Notes: generated from the letters alone by a model not told the origin. DNA of 64,000 nt from Bacteroidota bacterium (GCA_022711405.1 JAKLFC010000010.1:70349-134348); one strand, 5' to 3'; shown: positions 9,093 to 24,313, counted from the first letter of the stretch. Made by a program: numbers and translations.

Positions 9093-9528
9093 AGTTCAGC
9101 CGCATCTGCTCTTCAGTCAGTGTTTCTTTAATGGCATTTTCCCAGAAAGGAGTGTCCCAGGAGTGAAGAGTGCTGTGTGTTACCAGGTACTTCTGAGGAA
9201 TAGGATGGGTACCGAAGATCACTTCCAGTCCAAACTTTTCCTTTATGAATTTCTCAAAATATTCCATATACGGGCAGGGAGGATATCCTACCAGAAATCC
9301 TGTGGCGAAATGAACATGCGTTACCCCATTCTTCTTCATTTCAATAAATGCTTGCTCAATATTTCCTCCCGGACAACCTCCACAGGTGGTATACCCGGCA
9401 AGTTCTGCCTCCTTGTCATTATAAACCGAGAAAGCTCCCTCCCGGTTCCGGAATGCCCTGAAGCACTTTCCTCCGGCACACATTCGGTAGCGATCACAGA
9501 TGATGATCCCGATTTTGATTTTTCCCAT
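9085..9528 (-). CDS. CGGC-domain protein
   Basis: 147 aa with CDRYRMCAGGKC and TTCGGCPG motifs characteristic of CGGC-domain proteins. Confidence 0.7.
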   Translation of the reverse strand: MGKIKIGIIICDRYRMCAGGKCFRAFRNREGAFSVYNDKEAELAGYTTCGGCPGGNIEQAFIEMKKNGVTHVHFATGFLVGYPPCPYMEYFEKFIKEKFGLEVIFGTHPIPQKYLVTHSTLHSWDTPFWENAIKETLTEEQMRLNYD

Positions 9529-9542
9529 GGTGTTTCTTCAGT

Positions 9543-9917
9543 TTAATGTCCGCATTTACCATGTTCGTGAGGATGATCATGGTCGCAATAATTGGCACTT
9601 AGGCTCAATTTATTGGCAAGAAAATCATTGACAAGATCCACAGCTGGTTTTATGGGCGCACCCACGAAAGCATTGATCTGATGTTGATTGAAAAGCATGA
9701 TCGCCTGTTGCCCCATGCCTCCGGCGATGACATCAGTAACACCGAACTGAGCAATCCAGCGTGGATACAAACCCGGTATATGTTCCGGGGGTGTGACCTC
9801 CCTAACCTCGGTAATTTTGTTATTTTCAACATTTACGATGGCAAATGCCTGGCAGTGCCCGAAATGGGGGCATAATACCCCGTTTTCCAATGGAATGGCT
9901 ATTCTTTTGTTCAACAT
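9543..9917 (-). CDS. NifB/NifX-family (dinitrogenase FeMo-cofactor-binding-like) protein
   Basis: 124 aa with a HFGHC start region and a GMG...L motif, plus a His/Cys-rich tail (CDHDHPHEHGKCGH). Confidence 0.75.
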   Translation of the reverse strand: MLNKRIAIPLENGVLCPHFGHCQAFAIVNVENNKITEVREVTPPEHIPGLYPRWIAQFGVTDVIAGGMGQQAIMLFNQHQINAFVGAPIKPAVDLVNDFLANKLSLSANYCDHDHPHEHGKCGH

Positions 9918-9931
9918 AATTTCATCATGTG

Positions 9932-10165
9932 TTAATTTCCTCCCCTGAAGCGATTTTGTCTTCCCATACCACTTCCCTTTCCTACTCTGCCGCGACCCCG
10001 TCCCAAACCTTTTCCGGCAGGGTTTTCAGGAAGATTTTCATCCTTGTTTTCATCATCGGATGACACTGACTTTTTCCGGCCCTTACCATAATTGGTACAA
10101 CGGCCCATTTTACGGCCTGACATGGGACCCTGCCCTTCGGGACCTGTACGATCAAAACCTGGCAT
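9932..10165 (-). CDS. DUF5320-type small Gly/Arg-rich protein
   Basis: 77 aa. The N-terminus MPGFDRTGPEGQGPMSGRKMGRC matches the DUF5320 signature as I recall it. The tail is low-complexity and basic. Confidence 0.65.
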   Translation of the reverse strand: MPGFDRTGPEGQGPMSGRKMGRCTNYGKGRKKSVSSDDENKDENLPENPAGKGLGRGRGRVGKGSGMGRQNRFRGGN

Positions 10166-10178
10166 AAGTACCTCCTTT

Positions 10179-10496
10179 TTAATGATTTAACATTTCTATG
10201 ATTTCATGGATTGTTTTATTCGGATTTTTTACAACAATCATTTGTATATTCAGGCTATCCAGCAATGGTTTGATTTTCATTCCAAATTCGCCCGAAATGA
10301 TCTTGCTTATATTACGGGAAGCAACCAATTGAACGGACGCCGGTCCTGCTCCTTCCTCCACTTCCCTGTTGGGATTGGGAATATACTCCATGGCCCTGCT
10401 CTCCGTATCGTATACAACAAAGTAGGCACAACGGCCGAACCGTTGATCAATCAGTGATTCAAGGGAATTCCCCTGGGATGTGATGGCAATTTTCAT
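10179..10496 (-). CDS. NifB/NifX-family cluster-binding-like protein (paralogue)
   Basis: 105 aa with MKIAITS...RFGRCAYFVVYD, typical of the NifX-like family. Confidence 0.75.
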   Translation of the reverse strand: MKIAITSQGNSLESLIDQRFGRCAYFVVYDTESRAMEYIPNPNREVEEGAGPASVQLVASRNISKIISGEFGMKIKPLLDSLNIQMIVVKNPNKTIHEIIEMLNH

Positions 10497-10516
10497 CTTG
10501 ATTAGGTATTTAATGG

Positions 10517-10975
10517 TTACATTTCGATGTTCTTTTGCGTATCATTCCAATTAAAACCTTCAACCTGCCGGCTGCCGCACAGGGGACAACGTTCCACTTT
10601 TATCATTCGTTCTGGATTATTGAAATGACACAGGCACTGCTTGCACTGATACCAGTCGCTGTCGAAATATACTTTTCCACCCTCGATGGTGATCTGTCGT
10701 CCTTCGACAAAAGCCCTGGCAATTTTTTCACGTGCCGATGCATAGATCCGTGTATAGGTCGGGCGTGAAATACCCATGACGATGGATGCATGATGATGAT
10801 TATACCCATCATAGTCACATAGTCGTAACGCTTCGTATTCCTCATATAACAGGTAAACTGGCTCAACTTTCTGGTTTTTCAAATCGGAACCGTATGGCTT
10901 GAAACCCTTGATTAGTGGAGGATTTACCACCTTTCTAATTCTTTTTAGCCGTGGTGTCATCGTTATAATGAGCAA
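10517..10975 (-). CDS. DUF134 (UPF0251) putative DNA-binding protein with C-terminal Cys motifs
   Basis: 152 aa. The likely start is MTPRLKRIRKV. It has a ...FKPYG signature, an HTH-like centre, and C-terminal CKQCLC...CPLCG motifs. Confidence 0.75.
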   Translation of the reverse strand: MLIITMTPRLKRIRKVVNPPLIKGFKPYGSDLKNQKVEPVYLLYEEYEALRLCDYDGYNHHHASIVMGISRPTYTRIYASAREKIARAFVEGRQITIEGGKVYFDSDWYQCKQCLCHFNNPERMIKVERCPLCGSRQVEGFNWNDTQKNIEM

Positions 10976-11172: not shown

Positions 11173-11784
11173 GTGGATGAATCTTCCTCTCAAGAGCAAA
11201 CTACGATCCTTCGCCTGAAGAATATGACGTGCAGTTGCTGTGTCCGTATCGTCAGGCAAGAACTGGAAAAGATTGGGGTAAAGGTGAATTCGGTCAGCCT
11301 CGGCGAGGCCGATATCACCTACGATATTTCTGATCCGGGATTTGATATGATACGGAAGGTACTGGCGGAAAACGGATTTGAGCTTGCCCAGAACAGGGAA
11401 GAAGCCATTGTAGAACAAATCAAAATTGCAGTGATCGAGTTGATCCACCTGTCGAACAACAGCAACTCCATCATCCGGAACTCGGATTACCTGGTGGATA
11501 AGATCCAGCTTTCGTATCAGTACCTTTCCAATCTGTTTTCCCAGCACGAAAAAATGACGCTGGAGAAGTTCATCATCCTGCATAAGATTGAAAAGGTGAA
11601 GGAGCTGATTTCCTATGATGAGCTTACCTTAAGTGAAATTGCTTTCCAGATGGGTTACAGCAGCGTGCAGTACCTTTCGACGCAGTTCAGGAGCGTTACG
11701 GGCTTGTCGGTCACGGAATATAAAAAGGATCCGGTAAAGAACCGGATCCCGCTGGATGATCTGCTGACAAAGGATGAAGAGTAA
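11173..11784 (+). CDS. AraC-family transcription regulator with N-terminal heavy-metal-associated (HMA) domain
   Basis: 203 aa. LRLKNMTCSCCVRIVRQELEKIG is an HMA-type metal-binding loop. The C-terminus (LSEIAFQMGYSSVQYLSTQFRSVTGLSVTEY) is an AraC HTH. Confidence 0.8.
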   Translation: MDESSSQEQTTILRLKNMTCSCCVRIVRQELEKIGVKVNSVSLGEADITYDISDPGFDMIRKVLAENGFELAQNREEAIVEQIKIAVIELIHLSNNSNSIIRNSDYLVDKIQLSYQYLSNLFSQHEKMTLEKFIILHKIEKVKELISYDELTLSEIAFQMGYSSVQYLSTQFRSVTGLSVTEYKKDPVKNRIPLDDLLTKDEE

Positions 11785-11793
11785 CTCGGGTTT

Positions 11794-12576
11794 TTACAGC
11801 GTGGACAGGCACCCGCATCCTCCAAAGCCGGATTCATGTTCTGAGTTGATGATCTCGTCGAAATATTCCTGGCTGATGTACTGAGGAGTATAATCGGCAC
11901 CGCGGAAGACCAGGTTTCTGTAAAACGCACGCAGGTGATTCCTTGAGCCACGCTCCAGGTTTTCAAACACCCAGGTAATGTCCTGGTTGTCCACCACGTT
12001 TTGAAGTAAATTCTGCAAATCAAAAATGTCCATATCCTCTATGGTGGCACCTGCTGTCAGCCCGTCGATAAGGGAATTATCTGCAAGATCAGTGAGTTCA
12101 TTGTACGCTGTCTGTAACTCCTGGTTGATGAACACACCGGGTTGATGATTTTCACCGGGATCCGTCAATTCGTACTTGTCAAGGAGATATTTGACCATGG
12201 TGGTATGCTGCGTTTCACTCTTTGAGATATTATTGAAGATGGGAATCGGATAGAGTGCATATGCAAACACATATACATCCTTTGCCAGCAATTCCTCTTC
12301 ACGCATATGAAGCAATGCCTCTACTTCTTCTGCACTTAACTCCTCGAAGGGAAATGTATCAATACAATTCATTACAGATCCCATCGGGCTCTGTTCAAAA
12401 TTCCCTGTCAGGAGTATGGTTTCCTTTAATTCAGAACTCACAGCATCAGGTGTGCCCACATCAGGTGTCTTACTGCAACCCGGGATCGCCAGGCTTACGA
12501 TGATCAATGCCGGCATTACAAGAATGGAAAAAATTTTTTTCGTTTTCATGACATTTTTTTTAAAGTGATTATTCAA
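11794..12576 (-). CDS. Ferritin-like (DUF2202-type) lipoprotein with Cys-rich C-terminus
   Basis: 260 aa with a lipobox (AIPGCSK) and a duplicated ferritin-like helix pattern (EEELLAKDVY...; ...LERGSRNHLRAF). The tail is GFGGCGCLSTL. Confidence 0.65.
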   Translation of the reverse strand: MNNHFKKNVMKTKKIFSILVMPALIIVSLAIPGCSKTPDVGTPDAVSSELKETILLTGNFEQSPMGSVMNCIDTFPFEELSAEEVEALLHMREEELLAKDVYVFAYALYPIPIFNNISKSETQHTTMVKYLLDKYELTDPGENHQPGVFINQELQTAYNELTDLADNSLIDGLTAGATIEDMDIFDLQNLLQNVVDNQDITWVFENLERGSRNHLRAFYRNLVFRGADYTPQYISQEYFDEIINSEHESGFGGCGCLSTL

Positions 12577-12772
12577 AATTTAACCGTACAAAATTGGCTC
12601 GTGAATTTTAAGGAGTTGTTACAGAATCTATGAAAAGTATTATGACATTTCTGTCCGTTAAAACTGTTATAAGTGGCAGAATTCCAAAATATTAAAATAC
12701 TATAACATAATTATAGGATTATATACACCGGGCTTAGCTAACCCATCGTTATTTTGTAGAAAAAATGAATCA

Positions 12773-13564
12773 ATGAAAAAATTCATTATCATTTTATGGG
12801 CATCCCTGCTTGTTCATCAGGGTGTCTCTCAGGTAAACCTGGAAACGATATATCAGGTTTCAGGAGCGTTGACACAGCTCGAAAAATCAGGGTTCAAATA
12901 CTATGTGATGGATTGGACCAACGTTCAGTGCCGTTTATACAATATGGATCATTCGCTATGGAAGGCGGTCACTCTCACCGTTCCCACCGGCTATTACCTG
13001 TACGATATCCGTTATGTCTCGGAACATCTTTTCAATACGGATGATCTGGTGGAAATGGCCGTTACTTATTTCTATTATGAAGAAGCAGGCCAATACTATA
13101 TCTACGGCAGCAAGATCGTCAATGAACTGGGAGAAGAACTGGTGGTCATCCCAGGAGCTTCTTATTTTCAGGTATATGATGCCGGTGACTATGGCCGGAA
13201 GTTTCTTGCCTATGTCTACGATTATTCGGTTTATCCATATCCGGTTCAGACATGGGTGTACGACCTGCCTGGAGGAGAAAATTCAAACAGCGTCATGAAT
13301 CCGCCAGCTTCCATGGGATTGCCGGCTCCCTATCCTAATCCGGCCAGCTCATTCGTCGTGATAAACGTTGAATTGCCAGACAATCCGACCAATGCTGAAA
13401 TTCAGGTCATGGACCTTCAGGGAAGGATGATTAAAAGCTATCCCATCACCGTTGGGAGTAAAACCTATCAGCTGAATATCAGTATGTATCCAAAAGGCGT
13501 ATATTTGTACCGGATCGTTGCAAATCATTATTGTTCTGAAAGTTTCAAACTGATCAGACAATAA
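12773..13564 (+). CDS. Secreted protein with T9SS C-terminal sorting domain
   Basis: 263 aa with a signal peptide. The C-terminus YPNPASSFVVINV...GVYLYRIV fits the type A Por/T9SS sorting domain. Confidence 0.7.
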   Translation: MKKFIIILWASLLVHQGVSQVNLETIYQVSGALTQLEKSGFKYYVMDWTNVQCRLYNMDHSLWKAVTLTVPTGYYLYDIRYVSEHLFNTDDLVEMAVTYFYYEEAGQYYIYGSKIVNELGEELVVIPGASYFQVYDAGDYGRKFLAYVYDYSVYPYPVQTWVYDLPGGENSNSVMNPPASMGLPAPYPNPASSFVVINVELPDNPTNAEIQVMDLQGRMIKSYPITVGSKTYQLNISMYPKGVYLYRIVANHYCSESFKLIRQ

Positions 13565-13610: not shown

Positions 13611-13859
13611 ATGAAATTAAAGGAAAACATCGCCATCAGTGATTCAGGATACCTCTTCAATCCTTCCACAGGTGAGTCTTTCGTTCTCAATCCCCTGGGT
13701 ATGGAAGTTTTACAGTTCGTGAAAAAGGGAAAATCCTTCGAAGAAATATCAAAGGAGGTCCTGACCCGGTACAGTGTGGATTCCATTACCTTCGAGAAAG
13801 ACTACCAGGATTTCATACACCAGCTCAGGCAGTATCTGTTAATCGGCAGCGATGAATAA
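13611..13859 (+). CDS. PqqD-family small protein (RRE-like peptide/adaptor-binding fold)
   Basis: 82 aa. The pattern ...GYLFNPSTGESFVLNPLGMEVLQFVKKGKSFEEISKEVLTRY... is the typical PqqD-like layout (beta-strands followed by a winged-helix). The stop overlaps the ATP-grasp start. Confidence 0.65.
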   Translation: MKLKENIAISDSGYLFNPSTGESFVLNPLGMEVLQFVKKGKSFEEISKEVLTRYSVDSITFEKDYQDFIHQLRQYLLIGSDE

Positions 13860-14898
13860 GAAAAGGGTAACGGTGGGCATCTCAGGGCTGAACGCCATCG
13901 ACAGCCCCGGGCCCGGGATGGCGGTAGCCATGGGCCTTCACGAAGCCAGATCATTGGATGTAAGGATCATTGGCCTTGCGTATGAATCGCTGGAGCCGAT
14001 GATCTACATGCACGACCTGGTCGACAGGACCTACCAGCTGCCGTATCCATCCTCCGGAAGCGATATGATCCTCTCAAGGCTTGAATACATTCAGGAGATG
14101 GAACACATCGATGTGATCATCCCCAATTTTGATGCGGAACTGTATTCTTTCATGAAGATCGAGCCCCAGCTGAAGAGAATGGGCATCCGCATGTTCCTGC
14201 CTGCTATGGAACAGTACGAGGAGCGGCATAAAGTGAATCTGTCCAAATTCGGTGAAAAATATGATATTCTTGTGCCCCATGGCAAGGCGGTCTTTGAACC
14301 CAAAGAGGTGTTCGATATCAAATCGGAGTTTACCTTTCCGCTGCTGGTAAAGGGTAAATGGTACGATGCCTATATTGCCTACAACATAGAGCAGGTGCTG
14401 ACCTGTTTCAATAAGATCAGTGCCAAATGGGGCCTGCCCGTGATCCTTCAGAAATTCGTACATGGCTCTGAGTACAATGTAACGGGACTTGGTGACGGCG
14501 CCGGTACCACGGTGGCTGCCGTGGCCATGCGCAAGCAATACATCACGGATAAGGGAAAAGCGTGGGCGGGGATCTCCATCGACGATACGTACCTTCTTGA
14601 ACTCACCCGCAAGTTTGTTACTGCAACGAAATGGCGCGGTGCCTTTGAACTGGAGATGATCAAGACCCAGGATAATAAATATTACCTGCTGGAGATCAAT
14701 CCTCGTATACCGGCATGGACATACCTTGCCGTGGGAGTCGGGCAAAACATCCCGGAAGCCCTGGTGAGGCTCGCCCTGGGGTTGAAAGTCCAGCCTTACG
14801 AATCCTATGATGTGGGAAAACTCTTCATCCGGTACTCCAAAGACATGATCGTCGACCGGGAGGAGTTTGAAAAACTCTCGATGACCGGTGAATTGTGA
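13852..14898 (+). CDS. ATP-grasp carboxylate-amine ligase
   Basis: 348 aa with the LLVKGK, ILQKFV.G.EY and ELEMI...YLLEINPR motif order of ATP-grasp enzymes. Confidence 0.8.
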   Translation: MNKKRVTVGISGLNAIDSPGPGMAVAMGLHEARSLDVRIIGLAYESLEPMIYMHDLVDRTYQLPYPSSGSDMILSRLEYIQEMEHIDVIIPNFDAELYSFMKIEPQLKRMGIRMFLPAMEQYEERHKVNLSKFGEKYDILVPHGKAVFEPKEVFDIKSEFTFPLLVKGKWYDAYIAYNIEQVLTCFNKISAKWGLPVILQKFVHGSEYNVTGLGDGAGTTVAAVAMRKQYITDKGKAWAGISIDDTYLLELTRKFVTATKWRGAFELEMIKTQDNKYYLLEINPRIPAWTYLAVGVGQNIPEALVRLALGLKVQPYESYDVGKLFIRYSKDMIVDREEFEKLSMTGEL

Positions 14899-14955
14899 TC
14901 CCACTCAACGTAACTTCAGAAAACAAAAGATAACTATACTGATAAAACTTTCAGC

Positions 14956-16302
14956 ATGGAAAAACAACGATATGAACGACCGATCCTGAAAAAACTGGAA
15001 ATGGGCATGCCCGGTAAATTCGGCGTAGCTGCCAACCTGCCTCCCACTACCCATATTGACGGGATCTCCGTAGACTCGCTGGTGGAAACCTACGGCTCAC
15101 CCGTGTTCATCCTGTCCGAGAAAACCATTCGTTCGGTTTTCAAAAGAGCAAAAAAAGCATTTACAACCCGCTATCCCAAGGTCCAGTTTGCATGGTCCTA
15201 TAAGACCAATTACCTGAATGCAGTGTGCAGGATCTATCATCAGGAGGGTTCCTGGGCTGAGGTCGTTTCAGGATTTGAATACGATAAAGCGATCGCCAAT
15301 GGAGTACAGGGACAGCACATCATTTTCAACGGCCCGGATAAATCGGCGATATACCTGGAAAAGGCCATCCGTAACGATTCCATCCTTCATATTGACCACC
15401 TGGATGAACTGTACACGATCATTGAGCTTACCGAAAAACTGGCGAAAAAGCCGAAAGTGGCCATCCGGGTGAACATGGATACTGGCATACAACCCATGTG
15501 GGACCGCTTTGGATTCAATTATGAAAACGGCCAGGCCTGGGACGCCCTCAACAAGATCATGCATTCAGGAAAACTGGATCTGGTGGGGCTTCACACCCAT
15601 ATCGGGACGTTCATCATGAGCCCGCAGGCCTATGGAGTCGCTGCCCAGAAACTTGCCGATCTTGCCATCGGGATCCGGCAGAAGTACAACCATACGATCA
15701 AATACATCGACATGGGAGGCGGCTTTGCTTCAGCCAATACCCTCAAGGGATTCTATTATCCGGGCAGCGACACCAATCCCACGTTTGATGACTATGCGGA
15801 GGCCATCACATCGGCATTGCTGAACACACAGTTCACACCGGATAATCTTCCCCTGCTGATCCTGGAGACCGGCAGGGCCCTTATCGATGAGGCCGGCTAT
15901 CTTCTTGGAACCGTCATCGCCAATAAAAGACTCTCTACCGGTAAACGGACCACGATTGTCGACATTGGCATCAACCTCCTTTTCACTTCTTTCTGGTACG
16001 AACATAAACTCACCCCCGCACGGCATTATTCACAGTACACGGAAGCAACTACGGTATATGGTCCCCTGTGCATGAATATCGACGTTATCAGGGAAAATGT
16101 CAACCTGCCGTTGCTGAACAAAGGCGACCATTTTGTCATCCATCACGTGGGGGCATACAATATGACCCAGTGGATGCAGTTTATCACCCTGCGGCCCAAG
16201 ATCGTCCTGATCGATCAGGACGGTACTGCCCACGTGATCCGCGAAAATGAAACCATGGACAATGTGATGAACATGGAACACCTTCCCGCCCATCTGAAAT
16301 GA
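14956..16302 (+). CDS. PLP-dependent decarboxylase, Orn/DAP/Arg decarboxylase (alanine-racemase fold) family
   Basis: 448 aa with FAWSYKTN (PLP lysine), HTHIGT, MGGGF and a C-terminal beta-barrel with GAYN. Confidence 0.85.
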   Translation: MEKQRYERPILKKLEMGMPGKFGVAANLPPTTHIDGISVDSLVETYGSPVFILSEKTIRSVFKRAKKAFTTRYPKVQFAWSYKTNYLNAVCRIYHQEGSWAEVVSGFEYDKAIANGVQGQHIIFNGPDKSAIYLEKAIRNDSILHIDHLDELYTIIELTEKLAKKPKVAIRVNMDTGIQPMWDRFGFNYENGQAWDALNKIMHSGKLDLVGLHTHIGTFIMSPQAYGVAAQKLADLAIGIRQKYNHTIKYIDMGGGFASANTLKGFYYPGSDTNPTFDDYAEAITSALLNTQFTPDNLPLLILETGRALIDEAGYLLGTVIANKRLSTGKRTTIVDIGINLLFTSFWYEHKLTPARHYSQYTEATTVYGPLCMNIDVIRENVNLPLLNKGDHFVIHHVGAYNMTQWMQFITLRPKIVLIDQDGTAHVIRENETMDNVMNMEHLPAHLK

Positions 16303-18506
16303 CCCGGATCATGAGCCGTATCAAAGCCCTTTTCACCAGCTTTATACGAGGCATACTCAATAGCTATGCACAGGTCTTCTTTTCTAACCACAGCCTGTTT
16401 GCCGTTTTTCTCATCCTTGTCTCTTTTTTTGATATCTATGCGGGTATTACCGGCCTGATGTCAGTGATCATATCCAATACCGCTGCTTACCTGATCGGCT
16501 TCAACCGGACTTTCATCAGAAGGGGATACTACGGATTCAATAGTCTTTTAGTTGGCCTGGGTCTGGGTATCTTCTATCAGCCCTCGGTCGAACTCTGGCT
16601 GCTTGTTTTCTTTACAAGCCTGCTGACACTTCTGCTCTCTGTCATGCTGGAGGGAGTCATAGGGAAATATTACCTGCCGTATCTCAGTGTCCCGTTCCTG
16701 CTGGGGATATGGATGGTCATGCTTGCTTCGCGCAGGTTTGAGGCACTCGACATAAGCGAACGCGGCATCTATATGTTCAATGACATGTATGCGCTGGGAG
16801 GCCTGAATCTGGTCAAAGTTTACGACTGGTTCACCCGGCTTGCACTGCCCGATTCGCTGGAGGTCTATTTCCGATCCCTGGGTGCCATCTTATTTCAATA
16901 TCATCTATTTGCAGGTATGCTGATCGCTCTCGGACTGATCATTTACTCGCGCATCGCTTTTGTGCTGTCGTTGGCCGGCTATTACCTGGCCTATATGTTC
17001 TTTCACCTGTTTGGAGGAGATTTCACCACCCTCAATTACTCTTATATCGGATTCAATTTTATTCTCACCTCCATCGCCGTCGGTGGATACTTCATTATCC
17101 CATCACGCTACTCTTACCTGTGGGTGGCCCTCCTCACCCCCCTGACCATTATTGTGATCATCAGTGCCGGAACCCTGTTCTCCATTTTTCAGCTTTCCAT
17201 TTATTCATTGCCCTTTAATGTCATCGTTCTCTTGTTCCTGTACATTCTGAGATTCCGGGAGAGAAACCTCGGATCTCCCCAGCTGGTGGTGGTGCAGCAT
17301 TTTTCCCCGGAGCGGAACCTCTATTCACACCTGAATTATTCCGGCCGGTTCAATCCTGCTTTACCCGTGAACCTATCACTGCCCGTTTTCGGAGAATGGA
17401 AGGTGACCCAGGGTCACCGGGGCGAGCATACCCATCAGCATGACTGGCAGCACGCCTGGGACCTCGAAATAGTGGATGAGGAAGGCCATGCATACAGCCG
17501 TTCAGGGAAAGAACCGGAGGATTTTTATGCCTATGGTAAACCCGTTGTCGCCCCTGCTGATGGCTGGGTGGAACAGATCCAGGATGGAATTGACGATAAC
17601 GCGGTCGGCGAGATCAACACGGTGCAGAATTGGGGAAATACGATCGTCATTCGACATACGGACTCCCTTTTTACAAAGCTCAGTCACCTCAGAAAGGGAT
17701 CGTTCAAGGTCAAAGAGGGAGAGCAGATAAAGAAGGGGGCACTGCTTGCCCAATGCGGAAATTCAGGGCGCTCACCGGTACCCCATGTTCATTTCCAGGT
17801 CCAGAATGAGCCGTACATCGGAGCTCCTACCCTGGAATATCCATTAAGCCATATTGTTCATCATGCGGAAGACAGGCAATGGCTGGTTGCCTGGGATGTC
17901 CCTGTCAAAAATGACCTTATCTCCAATATCGACCGTCATAAAGTGCTGGAAAATGCCTTTCATTTTGTTCCCGGCCAGTCGCTCCTGATGAATGTCAGCG
18001 AGCAGGGTTCCCCCATGCGTCAGGAAATGCTGGTGGTCAAAGTGGATTCTTTGAACAATCAGTATATTGAATGTGAAAGGTTTGGCGCCAGGGCTTTTTT
18101 CAGGAATGAGGACAATGTGTTCTATTTTACCGGATATTCCGGATCGAGACGGTCGGTGCTCTATTATTTTTTCCTCGCCCATTTTAAGGTGGTCAAAGGA
18201 TTCTACTGCAACATGTCCATAGAAGACCCAATCCCTGTCGATCTTTTTCATAACCGAGTCCTGTTGTTTTTCCAGGATCTGGTGGCACCTTTCTTTATTT
18301 TTATTAGTTCAATGTACACACTTTCATATACCCGCATACAGGATCAGCTGTCATCCCCTGTCATCACCCTGAATGCTGCATGCGAAGCAAGGACATTAAA
18401 ATCGTCATCCGGTCACATGGATTTCGAGACCCGGATCGATGAAAAGGGGATCAAGGAATTCAGGGTGATCAGAAAAAACCGCGTCATGGAGGTAACATGC
18501 ATCTGA
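16299..18506 (+). CDS. Fusion protein: urea-transporter-like polytopic membrane domain + M23 metallopeptidase domain + C-terminal domain of unknown function
   Basis: 735 aa. The first ~330 aa are about 10 hydrophobic helices with a urea-transporter-like N-terminus (ILNSYAQVFFS). The middle has M23 signatures (HTHQHDWQHAWD ... GNSGRSPVPHVHFQV). The start overlaps the decarboxylase stop (ATGA). Confidence 0.7.
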   Translation: MTRIMSRIKALFTSFIRGILNSYAQVFFSNHSLFAVFLILVSFFDIYAGITGLMSVIISNTAAYLIGFNRTFIRRGYYGFNSLLVGLGLGIFYQPSVELWLLVFFTSLLTLLLSVMLEGVIGKYYLPYLSVPFLLGIWMVMLASRRFEALDISERGIYMFNDMYALGGLNLVKVYDWFTRLALPDSLEVYFRSLGAILFQYHLFAGMLIALGLIIYSRIAFVLSLAGYYLAYMFFHLFGGDFTTLNYSYIGFNFILTSIAVGGYFIIPSRYSYLWVALLTPLTIIVIISAGTLFSIFQLSIYSLPFNVIVLLFLYILRFRERNLGSPQLVVVQHFSPERNLYSHLNYSGRFNPALPVNLSLPVFGEWKVTQGHRGEHTHQHDWQHAWDLEIVDEEGHAYSRSGKEPEDFYAYGKPVVAPADGWVEQIQDGIDDNAVGEINTVQNWGNTIVIRHTDSLFTKLSHLRKGSFKVKEGEQIKKGALLAQCGNSGRSPVPHVHFQVQNEPYIGAPTLEYPLSHIVHHAEDRQWLVAWDVPVKNDLISNIDRHKVLENAFHFVPGQSLLMNVSEQGSPMRQEMLVVKVDSLNNQYIECERFGARAFFRNEDNVFYFTGYSGSRRSVLYYFFLAHFKVVKGFYCNMSIEDPIPVDLFHNRVLLFFQDLVAPFFIFISSMYTLSYTRIQDQLSSPVITLNAACEARTLKSSSGHMDFETRIDEKGIKEFRVIRKNRVMEVTCI

Positions 18507-19843
18507 AGACGTTTATCATCTCCGTACTTGTTTTATCGTCTGTCTGCCTGTATGCGGAGGATCCTCCAGACTTCGTGGAGGTGGACACGACCACCTATGG
18601 GTATTACGCCAGAAAGCAATGGAATGAACTGGTCGAAGCAGGGAACAGGTATCTGAAGTATGGATTTGATTACTATTACCTCAGGATGCGGATCGGAGTG
18701 GCTCATTATGAGCTGCAGAACTATATCAGGGCAGCTGACCATTTCACACGGGCGTTGAAATTCAATGAAGGAGATACTGCTGTACTTGCTCTGTTATATT
18801 ACTCCTATCTTCAGCTCAACAGGACAGATGCTGCTGACAGGGTACTGGGTATGCTGCCTGTGGAAGAAGCCCGGAAATTCCGGTCGGGAAAGTTCAGCTT
18901 CCTGGAAATGGTCTACCTGGAGACCGGTCCACTGATCTCTTCGGGAACGTCGGACAACAGCCGGATGAACCTGGATGGAACCGATGATGTCTATGGAGAG
19001 ATCGATCACCTGATCAGAAATTCATATTACAATGGATTGGGACTTGTGACAAGGCTTGCTCCCTCCGTGAGACTGCAGCTAAGTTATATGGATCTCTTTC
19101 AGGGCAGGACTGCCCAGGTGATGACAGGCGATTCCCTGATCTTTGACAAGGATCACTCCCTTCAGCAGCACCAGTTCTACATCAGCCCATCTTTCCGCTT
19201 TGGAAAGGGATTTTCGGTGATACCTGCCTTTCATTACCTTGACATTACCTACGACCAGCTGCATGTTCAGTACAGTCAGGAAACAAAGAATTATTCGTTT
19301 GATATGGACACCGTCCATCAGAGGGATTACCTGGCGTCCCTCTGCCTGAACAAGGACCTGTCACTGGTGAGCCTGACGCTGACAGGGACGTACGCAAGGC
19401 TCAACATGTTCGATCATTACCAGGCGGAAATTGCCCTCACGTATTACCCCAGGGGAAACCTGGATTTTTATTCCCAAACCATCGGACGGTATATTCATGG
19501 AAGGGAAGACCACTTCCATTTTGCCGAAACTGCCGGGCTGAAGATCAGCAAGGGATTGTGGATGGAAGTATCGGCCACGTTCGGGGAAGCGGCCGAGTTT
19601 TTTGAAAAAAACGGGTACATTGTGTATAACCTGCCTGAGGACATGTTGTTGAAATGGGGTTTCCAGCCCTATTACCAGATCTCGGATCGGTTGCTTGTCA
19701 GTGTGAAATATGAGAACCTGTATCGGGAAAGCAGGTTTCTGCAATATGATTATGAAGAGAATTCAGGGCAGTACCTGCAGGTATATAAACCATTCACGTA
19801 TCATCAACATCTCATCATCGGAATTTTAAAATTGAACCTATGA
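18497..19843 (+). CDS. Secreted envelope protein with N-terminal TPR-like region (possible outer-membrane barrel)
   Basis: 448 aa with a signal peptide. It has TPR-like helices near the N-terminus and an alternating aromatic/polar pattern in the C-terminal two-thirds. It overlaps both neighbours. Confidence 0.45.
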   Translation: MHLKTFIISVLVLSSVCLYAEDPPDFVEVDTTTYGYYARKQWNELVEAGNRYLKYGFDYYYLRMRIGVAHYELQNYIRAADHFTRALKFNEGDTAVLALLYYSYLQLNRTDAADRVLGMLPVEEARKFRSGKFSFLEMVYLETGPLISSGTSDNSRMNLDGTDDVYGEIDHLIRNSYYNGLGLVTRLAPSVRLQLSYMDLFQGRTAQVMTGDSLIFDKDHSLQQHQFYISPSFRFGKGFSVIPAFHYLDITYDQLHVQYSQETKNYSFDMDTVHQRDYLASLCLNKDLSLVSLTLTGTYARLNMFDHYQAEIALTYYPRGNLDFYSQTIGRYIHGREDHFHFAETAGLKISKGLWMEVSATFGEAAEFFEKNGYIVYNLPEDMLLKWGFQPYYQISDRLLVSVKYENLYRESRFLQYDYEENSGQYLQVYKPFTYHQHLIIGILKLNL

Positions 19844-20463
19844 GCAATTTGCGTAAATTAACGGGACTGGTCCTGCTGGTGATCATGCTCCCGGCCATGA
19901 ACAGGGCACAGGATTACCCTGCGATGCAGCAGGCCTTTGGTACGAGCTACAGCTATGAAAACAAGGGAGAGTATGCCAAAGCCATTGAAGAACTGAAAAA
20001 GATCTATCTTGAAGATTCCTACGAAATCAACATCCGGCTGGGCTGGTTGTCGTATTTAGCCGGGGCGTTCACCGAGTCGTCGGCCTACTACGAAAGGGCC
20101 ATTGCACTGATGCCCATGTCGATCGAAGCCCGGATGGGATTTGCCCTTCCCTCATCGGCCATGGGCAACTGGACGCTCCTCATTAAACGATACGAAGAGA
20201 TCCTTTCCATTGACCCGAACCATTCCATAACGAACTACCGGCTGGCCTCCATCTATTACAACCGGAAGGAGTATCAGAAAGCCTTTATCTATCTTGAGAA
20301 AATTGCCAACCATTATCCGTATGATTATGATATTGCAATCCTGTTTGCATGGACCAATTATCAGCTCGGAAAACTGCGGGAAGCTAAGGTGTTATTCAAC
20401 AAGGCCCTTTTAATCAGACCACTGGATGGTTCTGCGCTGGAGGGACTGAAGCTGATCCAGTAA
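19840..20463 (+). CDS. Secreted TPR-repeat protein
   Basis: 207 aa with a signal peptide and repeated A..Y..A. TPR patterns. Confidence 0.65.
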   Translation: MSNLRKLTGLVLLVIMLPAMNRAQDYPAMQQAFGTSYSYENKGEYAKAIEELKKIYLEDSYEINIRLGWLSYLAGAFTESSAYYERAIALMPMSIEARMGFALPSSAMGNWTLLIKRYEEILSIDPNHSITNYRLASIYYNRKEYQKAFIYLEKIANHYPYDYDIAILFAWTNYQLGKLREAKVLFNKALLIRPLDGSALEGLKLIQ

Positions 20464-20475
20464 TCCGGTGGTATG

Positions 20476-21171
20476 TCATCCTGTAATGCTGATGCTGATC
20501 AGTTTTTCCTTATTGAGGATACTGAAATCAAGCCCTTCCACAGCCAGAATGCCGCTATCCTTGAATTCTTTGATGATCCTTATAGCACTTTCTTTGGTCA
20601 TGGCTGACAGGTCAGCAATATCCTGCCTGGAAAGCTCAGTGTGGAACGAATCGGTGCCATAGACATGGTTGGAAAGGTAGAGCAGCGTTTCTGCCAGCCT
20701 TCCCGGCATCTGCTTCATGGTCAGGGTGACCATACGGTCAAAATTTTCGATCATCTGTTTATTGATCATTCTCAGCAATTCGAAGGCAAACTGGTTGTTC
20801 CGGATGATCGTTTTATTGAACGCTTCAATATCGATCAGGCATGCATAACAATCTGTGATGGCTCTGACCGAGTAATGCAGTTTATTGTCGACAAACAGGC
20901 CAGGTCCGGACGCTATTTCAGTGGGTTTCAGGATACGCAGAATCAGCTTGCGTTTACGCAGGCCCTCGATGTAAATGTTCGCCGATCCTTTGGTAAGGCA
21001 GACAATATGTGTCAGAGGGGCTCCCTGTTTCAGAATGATCTCACCTGCGTTAAAGCTTACCTCGTGCCGGTTCGCATCCATCATGCATAGTTCATCATCA
21101 GTGAGATGATTGAACAGAGGTATCTTCCAGTGACAGGAACTGCATGATAAACGATTGATAAATTCAGGCAT
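20476..21171 (-). CDS. Crp/Fnr-family transcription regulator with N-terminal Cys cluster (FNR-like)
   Basis: 231 aa with N-terminal CSSCHWK...C, a cNMP-binding-like barrel, and a C-terminal HTH (RQDIADLSAMTKESAIRIIKEF). Confidence 0.8.
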   Translation of the reverse strand: MPEFINRLSCSSCHWKIPLFNHLTDDELCMMDANRHEVSFNAGEIILKQGAPLTHIVCLTKGSANIYIEGLRKRKLILRILKPTEIASGPGLFVDNKLHYSVRAITDCYACLIDIEAFNKTIIRNNQFAFELLRMINKQMIENFDRMVTLTMKQMPGRLAETLLYLSNHVYGTDSFHTELSRQDIADLSAMTKESAIRIIKEFKDSGILAVEGLDFSILNKEKLISISITG

Positions 21172-21367: not shown

Positions 21368-22426
21368 ATGAAAAGAAAGGGATTCTTGACATTTTTAATG
21401 TCTGCCTTTGTGGTCGCTGTTTTTGTGATGTCGGGATGTACCAAAGAAGGTCCTCCGGGCCCTGCGGGTCCCAAAGGGGAAGACGGGATCAACGGTAACG
21501 ATGGGACAGTAGGTTGCATCCAGTGCCATAATTCGGATCAGACATTAGCAGCACTCACTATGCAGTGGGAGTACTCGGTTCACGCTACAGGAGGAAATTT
21601 TGAAAGGAATACTACTTCCTGTGCGCCGTGTCATACGAGCCAGGGCTTTCTGGAACGAATGGCCGCAGGAACCCAGGTCACAGCCGAAGACATTGCCAAT
21701 CCCAATCCCCCCAATTGCTACACCTGTCATAATATTCACAAGACCTACACGGTCGATGACTGGGCTCTTACGTACGCAGATCCGATAACCCTCTGGTATC
21801 CTGCCGGAGCAGAGGCAGTGGATTATGGAAAGGGGAATATTTGCGGCAACTGCCATCAGGCAAGGATCGTCAACCCGGTACCGGTTCCCGGAAGCGGTGT
21901 TACCTACAAGTTGACGAACAGCAGGTATGGCACACACCATTCTCCTGTGGCTAACATGCTGGCAGGATTGGGTGGTTATGAAAAGGAAGACTACGATAAC
22001 TCCCCTCACGGATCACTGGTAGAGGACGGATGCGTCACCTGTCATATGGCTGATGCGTACGGCTGGCAGGCAGGAGGTCATACAACAAAAATAGAATATG
22101 ACTATCACGGTTCCATCGAAGTCAATTTTGCAGGATGTACCACCTGTCACAGCGATGAGGATAAGCTTGCAACGGAACTGGAAGAAATCCAGACGGAAAT
22201 CGCAGGCATGATCGACAACCTACGCACGATCCTCAAGGACAGGGGGTATCTGGGCGATGATGACCTTTTCCTGGCCTCCAGTGGCTCGCCCCTGAACCTG
22301 ACTGCAGATGAACTGGGTGCCTGTCTTAATTTCCAGATGGTCCTCGAAGATAAAAGCAATGGGGTTCATAATTATCAATATTCCAAGAAACTGCTTGAGG
22401 AATCCATTTCCGATTTAAGCAAATAA
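21368..22426 (+). CDS. Hexahaem c-type cytochrome lipoprotein with collagen-like Gly-X-Y linker
   Basis: 352 aa with a lipobox (MSGC) followed by GPPGPAGPKGEDGINGNDG. Six CxxCH motifs: CIQCH, CAPCH, CYTCH, CGNCH, CVTCH, CTTCH. Confidence 0.85.
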   Translation: MKRKGFLTFLMSAFVVAVFVMSGCTKEGPPGPAGPKGEDGINGNDGTVGCIQCHNSDQTLAALTMQWEYSVHATGGNFERNTTSCAPCHTSQGFLERMAAGTQVTAEDIANPNPPNCYTCHNIHKTYTVDDWALTYADPITLWYPAGAEAVDYGKGNICGNCHQARIVNPVPVPGSGVTYKLTNSRYGTHHSPVANMLAGLGGYEKEDYDNSPHGSLVEDGCVTCHMADAYGWQAGGHTTKIEYDYHGSIEVNFAGCTTCHSDEDKLATELEEIQTEIAGMIDNLRTILKDRGYLGDDDLFLASSGSPLNLTADELGACLNFQMVLEDKSNGVHNYQYSKKLLEESISDLSK

Positions 22427-22510
22427 AATTAGAAAAGAAGGAATACACATGGCTTCATCAAGCGATGCCTTCCTTTTACTATGATAGCCTTCTTTCAAAA
22501 TACCCATGCG

Positions 22511-22891
22511 ATGAAAAAAATTCTGATTGTCCCGGTGCTGATAGGACTTGGCTTGCTGCTTCTCCTTACTTCCTGTGAATATGAGTTCATTGATTCCGAA
22601 CCTGAATCCTCCGACACTGCGAACGTTTCTTTCAAAACGGATATCCTGCCCATCTTCAACACCAACGACAACTGCACATCCTGTCATAAAACAGGATTTA
22701 CTCCTCCTGATCTGACGGAGTCCAATGCGTACAACAGCATCATTTCCACCGGTCTGGTTGATCTTGCAACACCAAAGAACAGCAAGATCTACAAAGTACC
22801 CGGTTCATCCGATCACGCCTGGAAGTCCTATACACAATCACAAAGTTCCAAAGTGTTGAACTGGATCAACCAGGGTGCTCCGGACAATTAG
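22511..22891 (+). CDS. Small monohaem c-type cytochrome-domain lipoprotein
   Basis: Start chosen at MKKILIV (residue 11 of ORF 22481..22891). It has a lipobox (LLTSC) and DILPIFNTNDNCTSCH, typical of the ILPI...CxxCH cytochrome domain. Confidence 0.7.
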   Translation: MKKILIVPVLIGLGLLLLLTSCEYEFIDSEPESSDTANVSFKTDILPIFNTNDNCTSCHKTGFTPPDLTESNAYNSIISTGLVDLATPKNSKIYKVPGSSDHAWKSYTQSQSSKVLNWINQGAPDN

Positions 22892-22919
22892 CCAATTAAC
22901 GTTTAATCCTGTACAGATC

Positions 22920-23795
22920 ATGAAAAAGCTGGGCATCTATCTGATCATATCTCTTCTGATCGTCACTCTGGTCAAAGGCCAGGACTCGGTACCGGTCCAA
23001 AAGGACAAACCCATCCGGTCACCTTTTGAAAGCGGAATGCTGATTGACAATGAGACCATGGTGATCCCGACGGCAAAAACGCTTGAACTGGTCATCCAGC
23101 ATCGCTTTGGAGAAATGAGCAACGGCATGGAGGATTTTTACGGCATCTGGGCTCCCTCTAACATCCGGCTGGGTTTCAATTACAGCATACTGAATACCCT
23201 GATGGTGGGCGTTGGCACTTCCAAAGATTACCGTCTCCAGGATTTCCGTATGAAATACAATCTGCTTCAACAAACCCGTTCCGATAAAATTCCCCTGAGT
23301 ATCACCCTGTATGGCAATTTTGCCATCGATGCCCGAAATCAGGATGTATTCGAAGGGTACTCGAGTCCTTATGAGTTGATTGATCGTTTCTCCTATTTTG
23401 GTGAACTAATCCTCACCCGGAAATTTTCAGATATCTTTACGTTACAGTTATCCGGAAGTTTCTCCCATATCAACAAAGTGCCCGAAGGAATTGAACATGA
23501 TAAAATAGGTCTTTCCTTTGCAGGAAGGTTTAAAATTTCTCCGCAGTCTTCCATCCTGTTCCAGTATGACATTCCGCTTGACTGTGAAAAAATGAAAGAA
23601 AACGCAGTGCTGATGAATGTTAAGCCCAATTTTGGAGTTGCCTGGGAAATTGCCACGTCCTCTCATGCCTTCCAGATAACCCTCAGTTCAGCAAAACTTC
23701 TGAGCCGTCAGTATGATATGATCTATAATGAATATGACTGGACAGAAGGAGATATCATGCTGGGATTTAATATGACACGCCTGTGGAGCTTCTAA
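22920..23795 (+). CDS. Putative outer-membrane beta-barrel protein (DUF5777-like)
   Basis: Start chosen at MKKLGIYLI, with a signal peptide. About 290 aa with alternating-residue strands and a terminal aromatic (...MTRLWSF). Confidence 0.55.
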   Translation: MKKLGIYLIISLLIVTLVKGQDSVPVQKDKPIRSPFESGMLIDNETMVIPTAKTLELVIQHRFGEMSNGMEDFYGIWAPSNIRLGFNYSILNTLMVGVGTSKDYRLQDFRMKYNLLQQTRSDKIPLSITLYGNFAIDARNQDVFEGYSSPYELIDRFSYFGELILTRKFSDIFTLQLSGSFSHINKVPEGIEHDKIGLSFAGRFKISPQSSILFQYDIPLDCEKMKENAVLMNVKPNFGVAWEIATSSHAFQITLSSAKLLSRQYDMIYNEYDWTEGDIMLGFNMTRLWSF

Positions 23796-23848
23796 TGGGG
23801 CACTTTATTTACTAACAGAATGAATTTTTATTTTTAAATGATACGACT

Positions 23849-24274
23849 ATGAAAAACAAAAATCTTTTAACAGTGGCAGTTGTATTCCTGGGGGCACTCC
23901 TGCTGGTTGCATTCACGATTCCTCAGGATCAGAAGAAGGGTGGTCCCTGGAACATACCTGACAAGTACAAAACCATGAAGAATCCCTATACAGGGAATGC
24001 TGATTTGACCAATGTCGGTAAAATGCTCTATGCCAAACATTGCAAAAGCTGTCATGGCAACGTGGGACTTGGAGATGGCCCCAAGGCTGCGACCCTTGCC
24101 ACAAACTGCGGTGATTTATCTTCAGCCACCTGGCAGAAAGCCAACAGTGACGGTGCCCTTTATTACATGTCCATTATCGGCAGGGATGAAATGCCCAATT
24201 TCGAAAGCAAGATCCCTGAAGAAGAAGACCGCTGGGCAGTCGTTAACTTTCTCAGGACACTGACGGCCAAGTAG
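23849..24274 (+). CDS. Class I monohaem cytochrome c
   Basis: 141 aa with a signal peptide, CKSCHG, and a distal Met region (GRDEMPNF). Confidence 0.85.
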   Translation: MKNKNLLTVAVVFLGALLLVAFTIPQDQKKGGPWNIPDKYKTMKNPYTGNADLTNVGKMLYAKHCKSCHGNVGLGDGPKAATLATNCGDLSSATWQKANSDGALYYMSIIGRDEMPNFESKIPEEEDRWAVVNFLRTLTAK

Positions 24275-24313
24275 CAACGGTTAATTGACCGATTATGGTG
24301 CTTTTTCTGGCTC

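Follow-up and report, generated by a model that had tools for sequence, protein, structure and literature searches.

A conserved six-gene operon in Bacteroidota

The locus described here is an uncharacterised operon of six genes at positions 13611 to 20463 of a 64,000-nucleotide stretch of DNA from a Bacteroidota bacterium (GCA_022711405.1, JAKLFC010000010.1:70349-134348); this whole stretch is referred to below as the window. The operon is real and ancient, is built from two modules, and probably makes and moves a small amine-bearing compound. A check of the open reading frames (ORFs) in the window found all six on the plus strand where an earlier note, made from the sequence alone, had placed them, and profile searches bore out the domains it had assigned. 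Gene 1 (13611-13859, 82 aa; PF05402) encodes a PqqD-like protein of the RRE type (recognition element of RiPPs, peptides that are ribosomally synthesized and carry post-translational modifications). Gene 2 (13852-14898, 348 aa) encodes an ATP-grasp amide ligase resembling PRK12767 and ATPgrasp_Ter, and gene 3 (14956-16302, 448 aa) a pyridoxal-phosphate (PLP) decarboxylase of alanine-racemase fold that is similar to FigC/FslC. Gene 4 (16299-18506, 735 aa) is a fusion of a urea transporter (UT) domain with an M23 metallopeptidase domain, written UT::M23 below. Gene 5 (18497-19843, 448 aa) combines tetratricopeptide repeats (TPRs) with a 14-strand outer-membrane barrel and is referred to as the outer-membrane protein (OMP), and gene 6 (19840-20463, 207 aa) encodes a periplasmic TPR protein with a signal peptide.

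Conservation was assessed by an alignment-based scan of a one-genome-per-species collection, in which an orthologue of the ATP-grasp ligase is encoded at at least 593 loci. The best 80 of these were analysed in detail, with gene order read by tblastn and ORF clustering; all are metagenome-assembled genomes (MAGs) of the Bacteroidota/Ignavibacteria/Chlorobi group, labelled mainly as Bacteroidales, Lentimicrobiaceae and Prolixibacteraceae. The order PqqD, ATP-grasp, decarboxylase, UT::M23, OMP, TPR is kept in about 64 of the 69 loci that have enough flanking sequence. The identical six-gene order recurs at three distant loci (L081-L083): one in an Ignavibacteria MAG, one in a MAG labelled Chlorobi and one on a further contig. 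Their flanking genes have nothing in common with those of the other loci, and their OMP is only 26-27% identical to that of the window. This synteny, which reaches into distant lineages, supports the earlier suggestion that the six genes form one functional unit.

In the window, stop and start codons overlap at four junctions (by 8, 4, 10 and 4 nt), all four of which had been taken to indicate translational coupling. The overlaps are real, but they are not equally general. The junction between PqqD and the ATP-grasp gene overlaps in 72 of 79 loci, that between UT::M23 and the OMP in 18 of 27, and that between the OMP and the TPR gene in 27 of 33, whereas the decarboxylase and UT::M23 genes overlap in only 5 of 42 loci and are often separated by inserted genes. 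The ATP-grasp and decarboxylase genes overlap in no locus (median gap 61 nt). The insertions between decarboxylase and UT::M23 differ by lineage and comprise an IF-2B/MtnA-like gene, a class I/II aminotransferase with DUF4405, a sigma-70-like gene and a PIN toxin-antitoxin pair (loci L051/L055/L057/L066/L069, L064/L068/L071, L004/L006 and L083). They were considered as clues to the pathway and rejected, since all lie at one loose junction in different lineages and are best read as insertions. The first three genes also occur without genes 4 to 6 at five loci, at which a shared downstream replacement partner was looked for and none was found.

From the overlap statistics, the insertions at the seam and these five triad-only loci, the operon is made of two tight modules joined at a permissive seam. 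Module 1 consists of the PqqD-like RRE, the ATP-grasp ligase and the PLP decarboxylase; module 2 consists of UT::M23, the TPR/14-strand barrel protein and the periplasmic TPR protein. The earlier note had described neither this two-module structure nor the HMA-AraC regulator discussed below, and its "envelope protein" is the TPR and 14-strand barrel protein.

Median identity to the window protein is 71% for the decarboxylase and 66% for the ATP-grasp ligase, and in the Ignavibacteria locus the two enzymes still share 66% and 58% identity, respectively, with those of the window. The corresponding medians are 55% for the TPR protein, 50% for the PqqD-like protein and 27% for the OMP; within the fusion they are 59% for the UT domain, 54% for M23 and 35% for the C-terminal domain. 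The strong constraint on both enzymes points to one fixed substrate rather than to a diversifying natural product. One MAG (CAZPWZ01) carries two copies of the triad on separate contigs (L003 and L041), with ATP-grasp proteins 74% and 66% identical to that of the window, which may reflect paralogy or mixed binning.

An anti-phage defence system was also considered and rejected, as PADLOC returned no defence-system match apart from one weak TPR-type match at 20 bits. Rfam models identified no riboswitch or known RNA in the window.

The PqqD-like protein and the ATP-grasp ligase

The 82-aa protein matches PF05402 with an E-value of 1.3e-10 and 41.8 bits (cutoff 23.4), in agreement with its first reading as PqqD-like. 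Its top NCBIfam match is the lasso PqqD chaperone, at 34 bits and under the cutoff of 70. In an alignment of 62 sequences, the beta-strand core FNPxTGESFxxNPxG is the most conserved part of the protein, and the C-terminal tail varies in both length and sequence (...SDE, ...EETKA, ...LID, ...TDG). Judged by profile and alignment, it is a canonical stand-alone RRE. The earlier note had suggested that this protein could be a carrier or an adaptor. Profile searches and the alignment found no PP-binding match, no phosphopantetheine-type site and no carrier motif, and the variable tail makes covalent attachment unlikely; a covalent carrier role of the BtrI or LysW type is therefore improbable. The other half of the suggestion fares better, and a non-covalent adaptor tightly partnered with the ligase is the favoured assignment.

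A precursor peptide was sought by six-frame clustering of small ORFs (15-90 aa) from 3 kb upstream to 1.5 kb downstream of the cassette. Across about 80 loci, this search found only PqqD and its antisense shadow, and there is no precursor gene among the gene calls of the three distant loci L081-L083. A precursor encoded in cis was rejected on the strength of the small-ORF clustering. Pfam searches of the cassette likewise detected no radical SAM, YcaO, LanB/C, lasso-cyclase or graspetide maturase domain, so the earlier observation that neither a precursor ORF nor a radical SAM enzyme or other maturase is present has been upheld.

The ATP-grasp ligase matches PF15632 (E 1e-9) and PF02655, and it matches PRK12767 at 3e-21, far under the cutoff of that model. 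According to its family description, PF15632 is the ATP-grasp family of Ter metal-stress operons. No PDB match was obtained by phmmer; a profile of the family gave carbamoyl-phosphate synthetase (CPS, 1e-6) and the unannotated structural-genomics protein 2pn1 (5e-5) as its best matches. The Mg/ATP motif E-x-E ... E-I-N-P-R is intact in the window, and E266, E268, E281, N283 and R285 are invariant. With the MvdC graspetide model it reaches 13 bits, where the cutoff is 425, and the NCBIfam matches of the cassette include no LysX or RimK model. By these comparisons, the enzyme belongs to an uncharacterised clade with no characterised relative. ATP-grasp enzymes that depend on a partner protein do exist (PMC13097080).

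The PLP decarboxylase

The decarboxylase matches Orn_Arg_deC_N at 1e-28 and Orn_DAP_Arg_deC at 2e-13. Its closest solved relative is the N-citrylornithine decarboxylase FigC/FslC of rhizoferrin synthesis (7kh2, 196 bits), followed by the diaminopimelate (DAP) decarboxylases at no more than 137 bits, the value for the M. jannaschii enzyme (DAPDC), and then by BtrK at 97 bits. The earlier note had named BtrK as the closest precedent, a place that FigC/FslC now takes.

The specificity determinants and residue roles named for FigC (PMC7857480) were mapped onto the window enzyme through a HMMER alignment. The PLP lysine is retained as K83. C372-M373 corresponds to the Cys-Met loop of FigC, whereas ornithine decarboxylase (ODC), arginine decarboxylase (ADC) and DAPDC carry at the Met position an acidic residue for the free amine of the substrate. 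T344 and Y348 correspond to T327 and Y331 on the specificity helix of FigC; the position of T327 is occupied in DAPDC by the Arg that binds the distal carboxylate of DAP. In the M. jannaschii enzyme this is R343, which aligns with T344, and its Cys-Glu becomes Cys-Met in the window. The basic-amino-acid and DAP decarboxylases have Asp/Glu and Asp/Arg where the window enzyme has the Cys-Met loop, T344 and Y348. The citrate ligands of FigC, in contrast, are replaced (H357 by I375 and R387 by Q405), as is T330 (by W347). All of these window residues (K83, C372-M373, T344, W347, Y348, I375 and Q405) are invariant in 70 orthologues.

A housekeeping LysA or ODC identity was rejected on model cutoffs and on the active-site residues: the lysA model TIGR01048 gives 222 bits against a cutoff of 297.9, and the FslC model NF041039 likewise falls short (237.7 bits against 500). 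Neither this enzyme nor the ATP-grasp ligase, which has no characterised relative, falls inside a housekeeping clade, a check that the earlier note had proposed. The alanine-racemase-fold decarboxylases of natural-product pathways, FslC, SbnH, PvsE, MccE and BtrK, act on pendant amino acids (PMC8503589). This usage and the residue pattern make it the most economical reading that the window enzyme would act on a pendant alpha-amino acid whose side chain is amide-linked to a partner other than citrate. The active site is consistent with the order of reactions first suggested, in which a tethered amino acid is ligated and then decarboxylated.

The UT::M23 fusion and the envelope proteins

The fusion protein begins with a 10-transmembrane (TM) channel domain (residues 17-316; 16347-17246, plus strand), which matches PF03253 with an E-value of 3.5e-60 and 204 bits (cutoff 25). 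The transporter dvUT and the human UTs align over the entire domain, and the signature motifs QV, GFN and LPxxxPF of the family are retained. The NCBIfam urea-transporter equivalog yut, however, scores 129 bits against a cutoff of 275. Compared with the published urea recognition motif (URM; Q-V-Y/F-T, present twice; PMC11589576), five of eight positions are kept (Q25, V26, F80, I197 and F252) and three are changed, both pore threonines being Ser (S130 and S303) and Gln(Pb) being Ala (A196). In the family alignment, seven of them are invariant, V26 being the one missing from the list. With the URM largely kept and the altered residues invariant, the pore looks intact, narrow and re-tuned, in a way that would suit a small polar solute and not a peptide.

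The M23 metallopeptidase domain (residues ~365-505; 17391-17813, plus strand) matches PF01551 over residues 411-503 (E 6e-17, 62 bits). Foldseek matched it to ShyA, DipM and EnpA (E 3e-7 to 2.5e-6), and the fusion as a whole gave only M23 and UT matches. The catalytic His (H463) and the HxH motif (H496-x-H498) are invariant. UT-family channels have both termini inside (N-in/C-in). The fusion has no signal peptide, and the M23 domain comes after TM10. Both flanks are basic: the N-terminus holds four Lys/Arg and no Asp/Glu, and the stretch after TM10 reads RFRER. An eleventh TM helix at residues 654-672, which would put the tail outside, was considered and rejected, as this hydrophobic stretch is a buried helix in a globular beta-domain in the AlphaFold2 model. 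Given its place after TM10 of an N-in/C-in channel, the basic flanks, and the lack of a signal peptide and of an extra TM helix, the M23 domain is probably cytoplasmic, together with the C-terminal domain. This predicted location argues against direct cleavage of peptidoglycan. To our knowledge, M23 enzymes have been described only as extracytoplasmic peptidoglycan hydrolases or regulators.

The beta-rich C-terminal domain (residues 506-735; 17814-18503, plus strand) is private to this architecture. It is modelled with a predicted local distance difference test score (pLDDT) of ~90, and Foldseek matched it to nothing in the PDB. Among 1.84 billion representatives, only 309 clusters matched it, in which the full-length matches are all UT::M23 fusions of ~730 aa. 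Other architectures were rejected, as the matches of intermediate length are fragments that begin in UT TM9-10.

Channel and peptidase are joined by a juxtamembrane linker with the invariant motif QQFSPEKNLYSHLNYKxRF (residues 332-351; 17292-17351, plus strand). Residues Q333, P337, E338, N340, Y342, N346 and R350 are invariant in 48 sequences, and the motif is also kept in divergent representatives. It falls in a low-confidence part of the model (pLDDT <50 for residues 289-353) and is probably flexible. As a hypothesis, the linker motif could be a docking peptide, that is, a candidate ligand for the RRE within the cassette itself. The fusion had been singled out earlier as unusual; a survey of 2026 already lists this architecture but gives it neither context nor function (PMC12998343), and it has never been linked to an operon or to a function.

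The gene 5 product is modelled by AlphaFold2 at a pLDDT of 92 and a predicted TM-score (pTM) of 0.82, with a signal helix, three TPRs and a 14-strand barrel. Its closest PDB folds are FadL/TodX (E 3e-11, TM-score ~0.5) and OmpG, and sequence searches of Pfam and the PDB return TPR matches only. The DUF560 (Slam barrel) signal was found in none of 35 members at E <= 5, and the cassette contains no conserved lipoprotein gene. Gene 6 matches TPR_2 at 2e-16 as well as other TPR families, and its product has a signal peptide followed by about four to five TPRs. The barrel, the TPR protein with its signal peptide and the inner-membrane UT domain suggest that these proteins may form a trans-envelope assembly.

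The 5' region and neighbouring genes

A gene for a protein with an HMA domain (CxCC motif) and an AraC-type helix-turn-helix (HTH) lies upstream of the operon (11173-11784, plus strand). In its orthologue at L016:8966-9556, HTH_18 is matched at 1e-14 and HMA at 3e-4, and the motif NM(T)CxCC is conserved. In 33 of 81 loci, whose outer contexts differ, the gene is found on the same strand and usually directly 5' of PqqD; in the window, a DUF2202 gene and one whose product carries a sorting domain of the type IX secretion system (T9SS) lie between the two. From this adjacency, the HMA-AraC protein is likely the regulator of the operon, and the adjacency also hints at a metal-related signal.

The promoter/operator-like 5' region of the window (12620-12772, plus strand) is ~85% identical to the region directly 5' of PqqD in the closest relative, L001. 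It is followed by a gene whose product is secreted, rich in Tyr and equipped with a T9SS sorting domain at its C-terminus (12773-13564, plus strand; Por_Secre_tail 3.5e-12). This gene is read as an accessory first gene, because it is absent from L001 and sits between the shared 5' region and PqqD; an orthologue lies directly 5' of PqqD and co-directional with it in about 14 loci. AT-rich direct repeats and a TAATATTGCA-like box occur ~50 nt 5' of PqqD in many loci. In many loci (e.g. L042, L040, L025, L019 and L055), tandem AT-rich repeats (AAAATnTTATACA ... AAAATTTCATAACA) are followed by GTAATATTGCA, ~50-110 nt 5' of PqqD; GTAATATTGCA resembles the Bacteroidetes -7 box. No significant link was found between this upstream DNA motif and the presence of the AraC gene (Fisher p = 0.24). 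A scan of sigma-70 promoters and terminators gave counts near the shuffled expectation.

The cassette lies directly 3' of mrdA, encoding penicillin-binding protein 2 (PBP2), and rodA in about 14 of the 80 loci (L010, L012, L013, L016, L020, L022, L023, L027, L029, L036, L041, L046, L047 and L067). Because those loci share a wider upstream gene block, the adjacency is probably lineage synteny and not a functional link.

Other neighbours recur in smaller numbers. The DUF2202 gene of the window encodes a ferritin-like lipoprotein (11794-12576, minus strand; cluster c17), which is found near the 5' end of the cassette in 7 loci, and an acyltransferase_3/HGSNAT-like membrane protein (cluster c11) is found there in 12 (e.g. 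L066:8601-9632). Downstream, positions 21368-26036 (plus strand) encode multihaem MtrC-like cytochromes, a DUF5777 beta-barrel, a cytochrome c and a b-type membrane protein, with a convergent Crp/Fnr gene (20476-21171) between this module and the cassette; the MtrC-like module also lies beside the cassette in L021, L026 and L072. Further upstream, positions 7358-10975 (minus strand) hold genes typical of anaerobes, for two MinD/ParA-type ATPases with 4Fe-4S domains, a CGGC-domain protein, two NifX/FeMo-cofactor-like proteins and DUF134.

Proposed function and alternatives

The preferred reading, to which we give a probability of roughly 35%, is that the system would conjugate an amino acid, decarboxylate it, cleave the conjugate at the mouth of the UT channel and pass a small fragment outward through the UT, TPR and barrel proteins. 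In the first step, the ATP-grasp ligase, in complex with the PqqD-like adaptor, would form an amide that ties the side chain of a pendant amino acid to a larger partner, either acyl or peptidyl; the adaptor would non-covalently grip a conserved peptide segment. The FigC-like enzyme would then strip the alpha-carboxyl group from the pendant amino acid and leave a primary amine, in parallel with the conversion of N-citrylornithine to N-citrylputrescine but with a partner other than citrate. The conjugate would next be received at the inner membrane face, where the M23 domain and the private beta-domain would cut an amide bond at the pore mouth. In this cleave-and-export scheme, a small polar fragment would finally leave by way of the altered urea-type pore and then of the TPR protein and the 14-strand barrel. 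Expression is probably under the adjacent HMA-AraC regulator.

A bolder version would have the RRE dock the ATP-grasp ligase, and perhaps the decarboxylase, onto the conserved UT::M23 linker. The result would be a membrane-bound metabolon with no free precursor, in which a cytoplasmic M23 peptidase, the first of its kind, cuts the amine conjugate at the mouth of the re-tuned pore and the fragment crosses both membranes by the UT, TPR and barrel conduit. We regard this version as unlikely. If true, it would put an RRE to a new use, place M23 enzymes in a new location with a new class of substrate, and amount to a new type of trans-envelope route for a small molecule.

Several observations weigh against the cleave-and-export scheme. 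The presence of an RRE normally points to a precursor peptide of its own, and no such peptide is conserved in cis. The occurrence of the triad without module 2 within 10 kb at five loci shows that the modules are separable. Median identities of 66-71% for the two enzymes are more typical of primary-type metabolism than of specialised-product export. The UT-type pore is very narrow, so that only a urea-sized neutral fragment could pass and a charged diamine would be unfavourable. The first zinc-ligand motif of the M23 domain, HAWD388, falls one residue short of the canonical HxxxD and is not covered by the sequence alignments. A cytoplasmic M23 would be unprecedented, and its topology rests on homology and the positive-inside rule. 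Transport could run in either direction, as export or as uptake, and outward passage is an inference. Lastly, the upstream DNA motif shows no significant association with the AraC gene.

A pathway that involves no peptide is possible, although we consider it somewhat doubtful. Here the ATP-grasp ligase would join a carboxylic acid to the side-chain amine of ornithine, lysine or Dap, and the decarboxylase would yield an acyl-diamine, metallophore- or polyamine-like; PqqD would be a structural subunit of the ligase, and module 2 would export the compound or re-import and recycle it under metal-sensing HMA-AraC control. The FigC-like active site suits this chemistry, and FigC, SbnH and PvsE provide a precedent for a ligase paired with a conjugate decarboxylase in polycarboxylate siderophores. 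The citrate-binding residues are gone, however, the pocket is more hydrophobic (W347, I375), and the cassette has neither an NRPS-independent siderophore (NIS) synthetase nor a siderophore transporter of the major facilitator superfamily (MFS) or the TonB type, nor a receptor. The two enzymes are very highly conserved, which suggests one fixed small substrate, and no precursor ORF was found in the ~80 loci searched; both would fit a peptide-free route, but in the PqqD-like protein conservation is highest in the RRE beta-strand core, the part that normally pairs with a peptide, and a peptidase has no obvious role in a small molecule with one amide. A metal-related product would fit the HMA-AraC neighbour, the nearby DUF2202 ferritin-like lipoprotein in 7 loci and the tie of PF15632 to Ter metal-stress operons. 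A ligase subunit role for PqqD has its counterpart in the partner-dependent ATP-grasps (PMC13097080).

A classical RiPP whose precursor is encoded elsewhere appears quite unlikely. The RRE would present this precursor to the ATP-grasp ligase, the decarboxylase would tailor a side-chain-attached amino acid, M23 would be the leader peptidase, and the UT, TPR and barrel proteins would serve in export. The coupling of a PqqD-type RRE to an ATP-dependent amide former, with a peptidase and membrane proteins in the same operon, parallels lasso B1/C/B2/D, and the top NCBIfam match of the RRE is the lasso PqqD chaperone; the ATP-grasp ligase, for its part, fails the graspetide/microviridin models (13 bits against 425). 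MccE offers a case of an alanine-racemase-fold decarboxylase that tailors a RiPP (PMC8503589), but enzyme conservation is unusually high here for a RiPP maturase. Scaffold-peptide pathways that release small products are also known (PMC13622209). A peptide itself could not pass the UT pore, and no conserved small ORF was found within 3 kb upstream and 1.5 kb downstream in ~80 loci, nor in the called genes of the distant loci.

Editing or recycling of peptidoglycan stem peptides or precursors, now placed in the cytoplasm, is very unlikely. The earlier note had offered peptidoglycan editing as its alternative, and the predicted cytoplasmic location of M23 and the loss of the DAP-binding Arg from the decarboxylase both weaken it. 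The decarboxylase would turn peptide-bound meso-DAP, with its free D-centre, into lysine, the ATP-grasp ligase would add or re-ligate an amino acid in the manner of Ddl or Asl, M23 would cut stem peptides, and the envelope proteins would link the system to the wall. Peptide-bound DAP is indeed a pendant alpha-amino acid on an amide-linked partner, which would fit the loss of the DAPDC residues for the free distal centre, and on family knowledge all characterised M23 enzymes act on peptidoglycan peptides, though not in the compartment predicted here. The location directly 3' of mrdA-rodA, which would suit a cell-wall role, is limited to about 14 of 80 loci with one shared upstream block and is absent from the window and the distant lineages. 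No Mur, Mpl, Ldc or AmpG-type recycling genes co-occur in the loci examined, an RRE has no known role with short D-amino-acid stem peptides, and a UT channel has none in muropeptide traffic.

That the modules are unrelated neighbours, with module 1 serving metabolism on its own and module 2 forming a regulated channel complex for urea or small amides, would explain the loose, insertion-prone decarboxylase-UT::M23 junction and the five loci with the triad alone, but is highly improbable given that adjacency, order and strand are kept in ~93% of informative loci, and that all three are kept also in the Ignavibacteria- and Chlorobi-labelled MAGs with their entirely different flanking genes.

With at least 593 loci in a one-genome-per-species collection, the operon has no assigned function. 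An answer would probably bring to light a new small metabolite, an amine or an amide, which may relate to metals or to the envelope; it would also provide a first role for an M23 domain in the cytoplasm and for a UT-family pore that does not serve urea. It might also show an RRE at work outside RiPP synthesis, which would change how "RRE-containing" clusters are read in genome mining.

Comparison with known systems

No paper was found in the literature searched that describes this system or combines its components, in line with the earlier view that the gene set fits no known pathway. In its proposed working, the operon resembles in part FslA/FslC, in part RRE-guided RiPP machinery and in part export coupled to a peptidase. 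We place it outside every known kind of system; it has no precursor gene, class-defining maturase, NIS synthetase, citrate site, acyl carrier protein, LysW-type acceptor or DUF560 barrel.

The rhizoferrin enzymes FslA/FslC (FigA/FigC), with SbnH and PvsE, share with it the Cys-Met loop, the Thr/Tyr specificity helix and the sequence of side-chain ligation followed by decarboxylation of the conjugate. The ligase here is an ATP-grasp enzyme, whereas theirs is an IucA/IucC NIS synthetase, which is found neither in the cassette nor among its recurrent neighbours. The citrate-binding His and Arg of FigC are Ile and Gln here, a Thr is Trp, and the FslC cutoff is missed (238 against 500). The cassette has no MFS exporter or TonB receptor; the RRE, M23 peptidase, UT channel and TPR barrel are additions of its own.

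Butirosin side-chain synthesis by BtrI/BtrJ/BtrK likewise combines a small protein, an ATP-grasp ligase and an alanine-racemase-fold decarboxylase for a tethered amino acid. BtrI, however, is an acyl carrier protein, whereas the small protein here has the PqqD/RRE fold and no phosphopantetheine site; BtrK is more distant (97 bits) than FigC or DAPDC, and partners of the BtrH/G/O/V type are absent. The lasso system B1/C/B2/D also couples a stand-alone PqqD-type RRE to an ATP-dependent amide former, with a peptidase and a membrane component in the operon. The cassette differs in having no precursor gene, an ATP-grasp ligase in place of the Asn-synthetase-like lasso cyclase, M23 in place of a transglutaminase-like Cys protease, a narrow channel in place of an ABC transporter, and a PLP decarboxylase in addition. 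LysW/LysX/LysK, the pearlin-type pathways and fosfazinomycin FzmZ (PMC13622209) resemble it in concept: an ATP-dependent ligase assembles a small product on a handle, either peptide or protein, and a metallopeptidase sets it free. The cassette, in contrast, shows no conserved acceptor residue (in LysW, the C-terminal Glu), no LysX/RimK-type enzyme or peptide aminoacyl-tRNA ligase (PEARL), and no scaffold gene.

The components of module 2 can be compared in the same way. Against the M23 peptidoglycan endopeptidases, the M23 domain has Foldseek matches, the invariant catalytic His and the HxH motif on the one side and the shortened HAWD in place of HxxxD on the other; its predicted cytoplasmic location differs from theirs, which is extracytoplasmic with access to the cell wall. 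Slam-type translocons have the same combination of an N-terminal periplasmic TPR region and a 14-strand barrel, with a DUF560 signal and a partner lipoprotein that were not found here; the 14-strand channels FadL, TodX and OmpG are the best structural matches of gene 5, which has no FadL-type plug. The urea transporters dvUT, UT-A and UT-B share the full 10-TM domain with QV, GFN and LPxxxPF; in the fusion, both URM threonines are Ser and Gln(Pb) is Ala, all three invariant, and the urea-transporter cutoff is missed (129 against 275). The parts brought together in this operon, namely the RRE, the ATP-grasp ligase, the conjugate decarboxylase of siderophore type, the urea channel, the peptidase of cell-wall type and the TPR barrel of the outer membrane, are each well understood elsewhere, but they have never been seen at work together.

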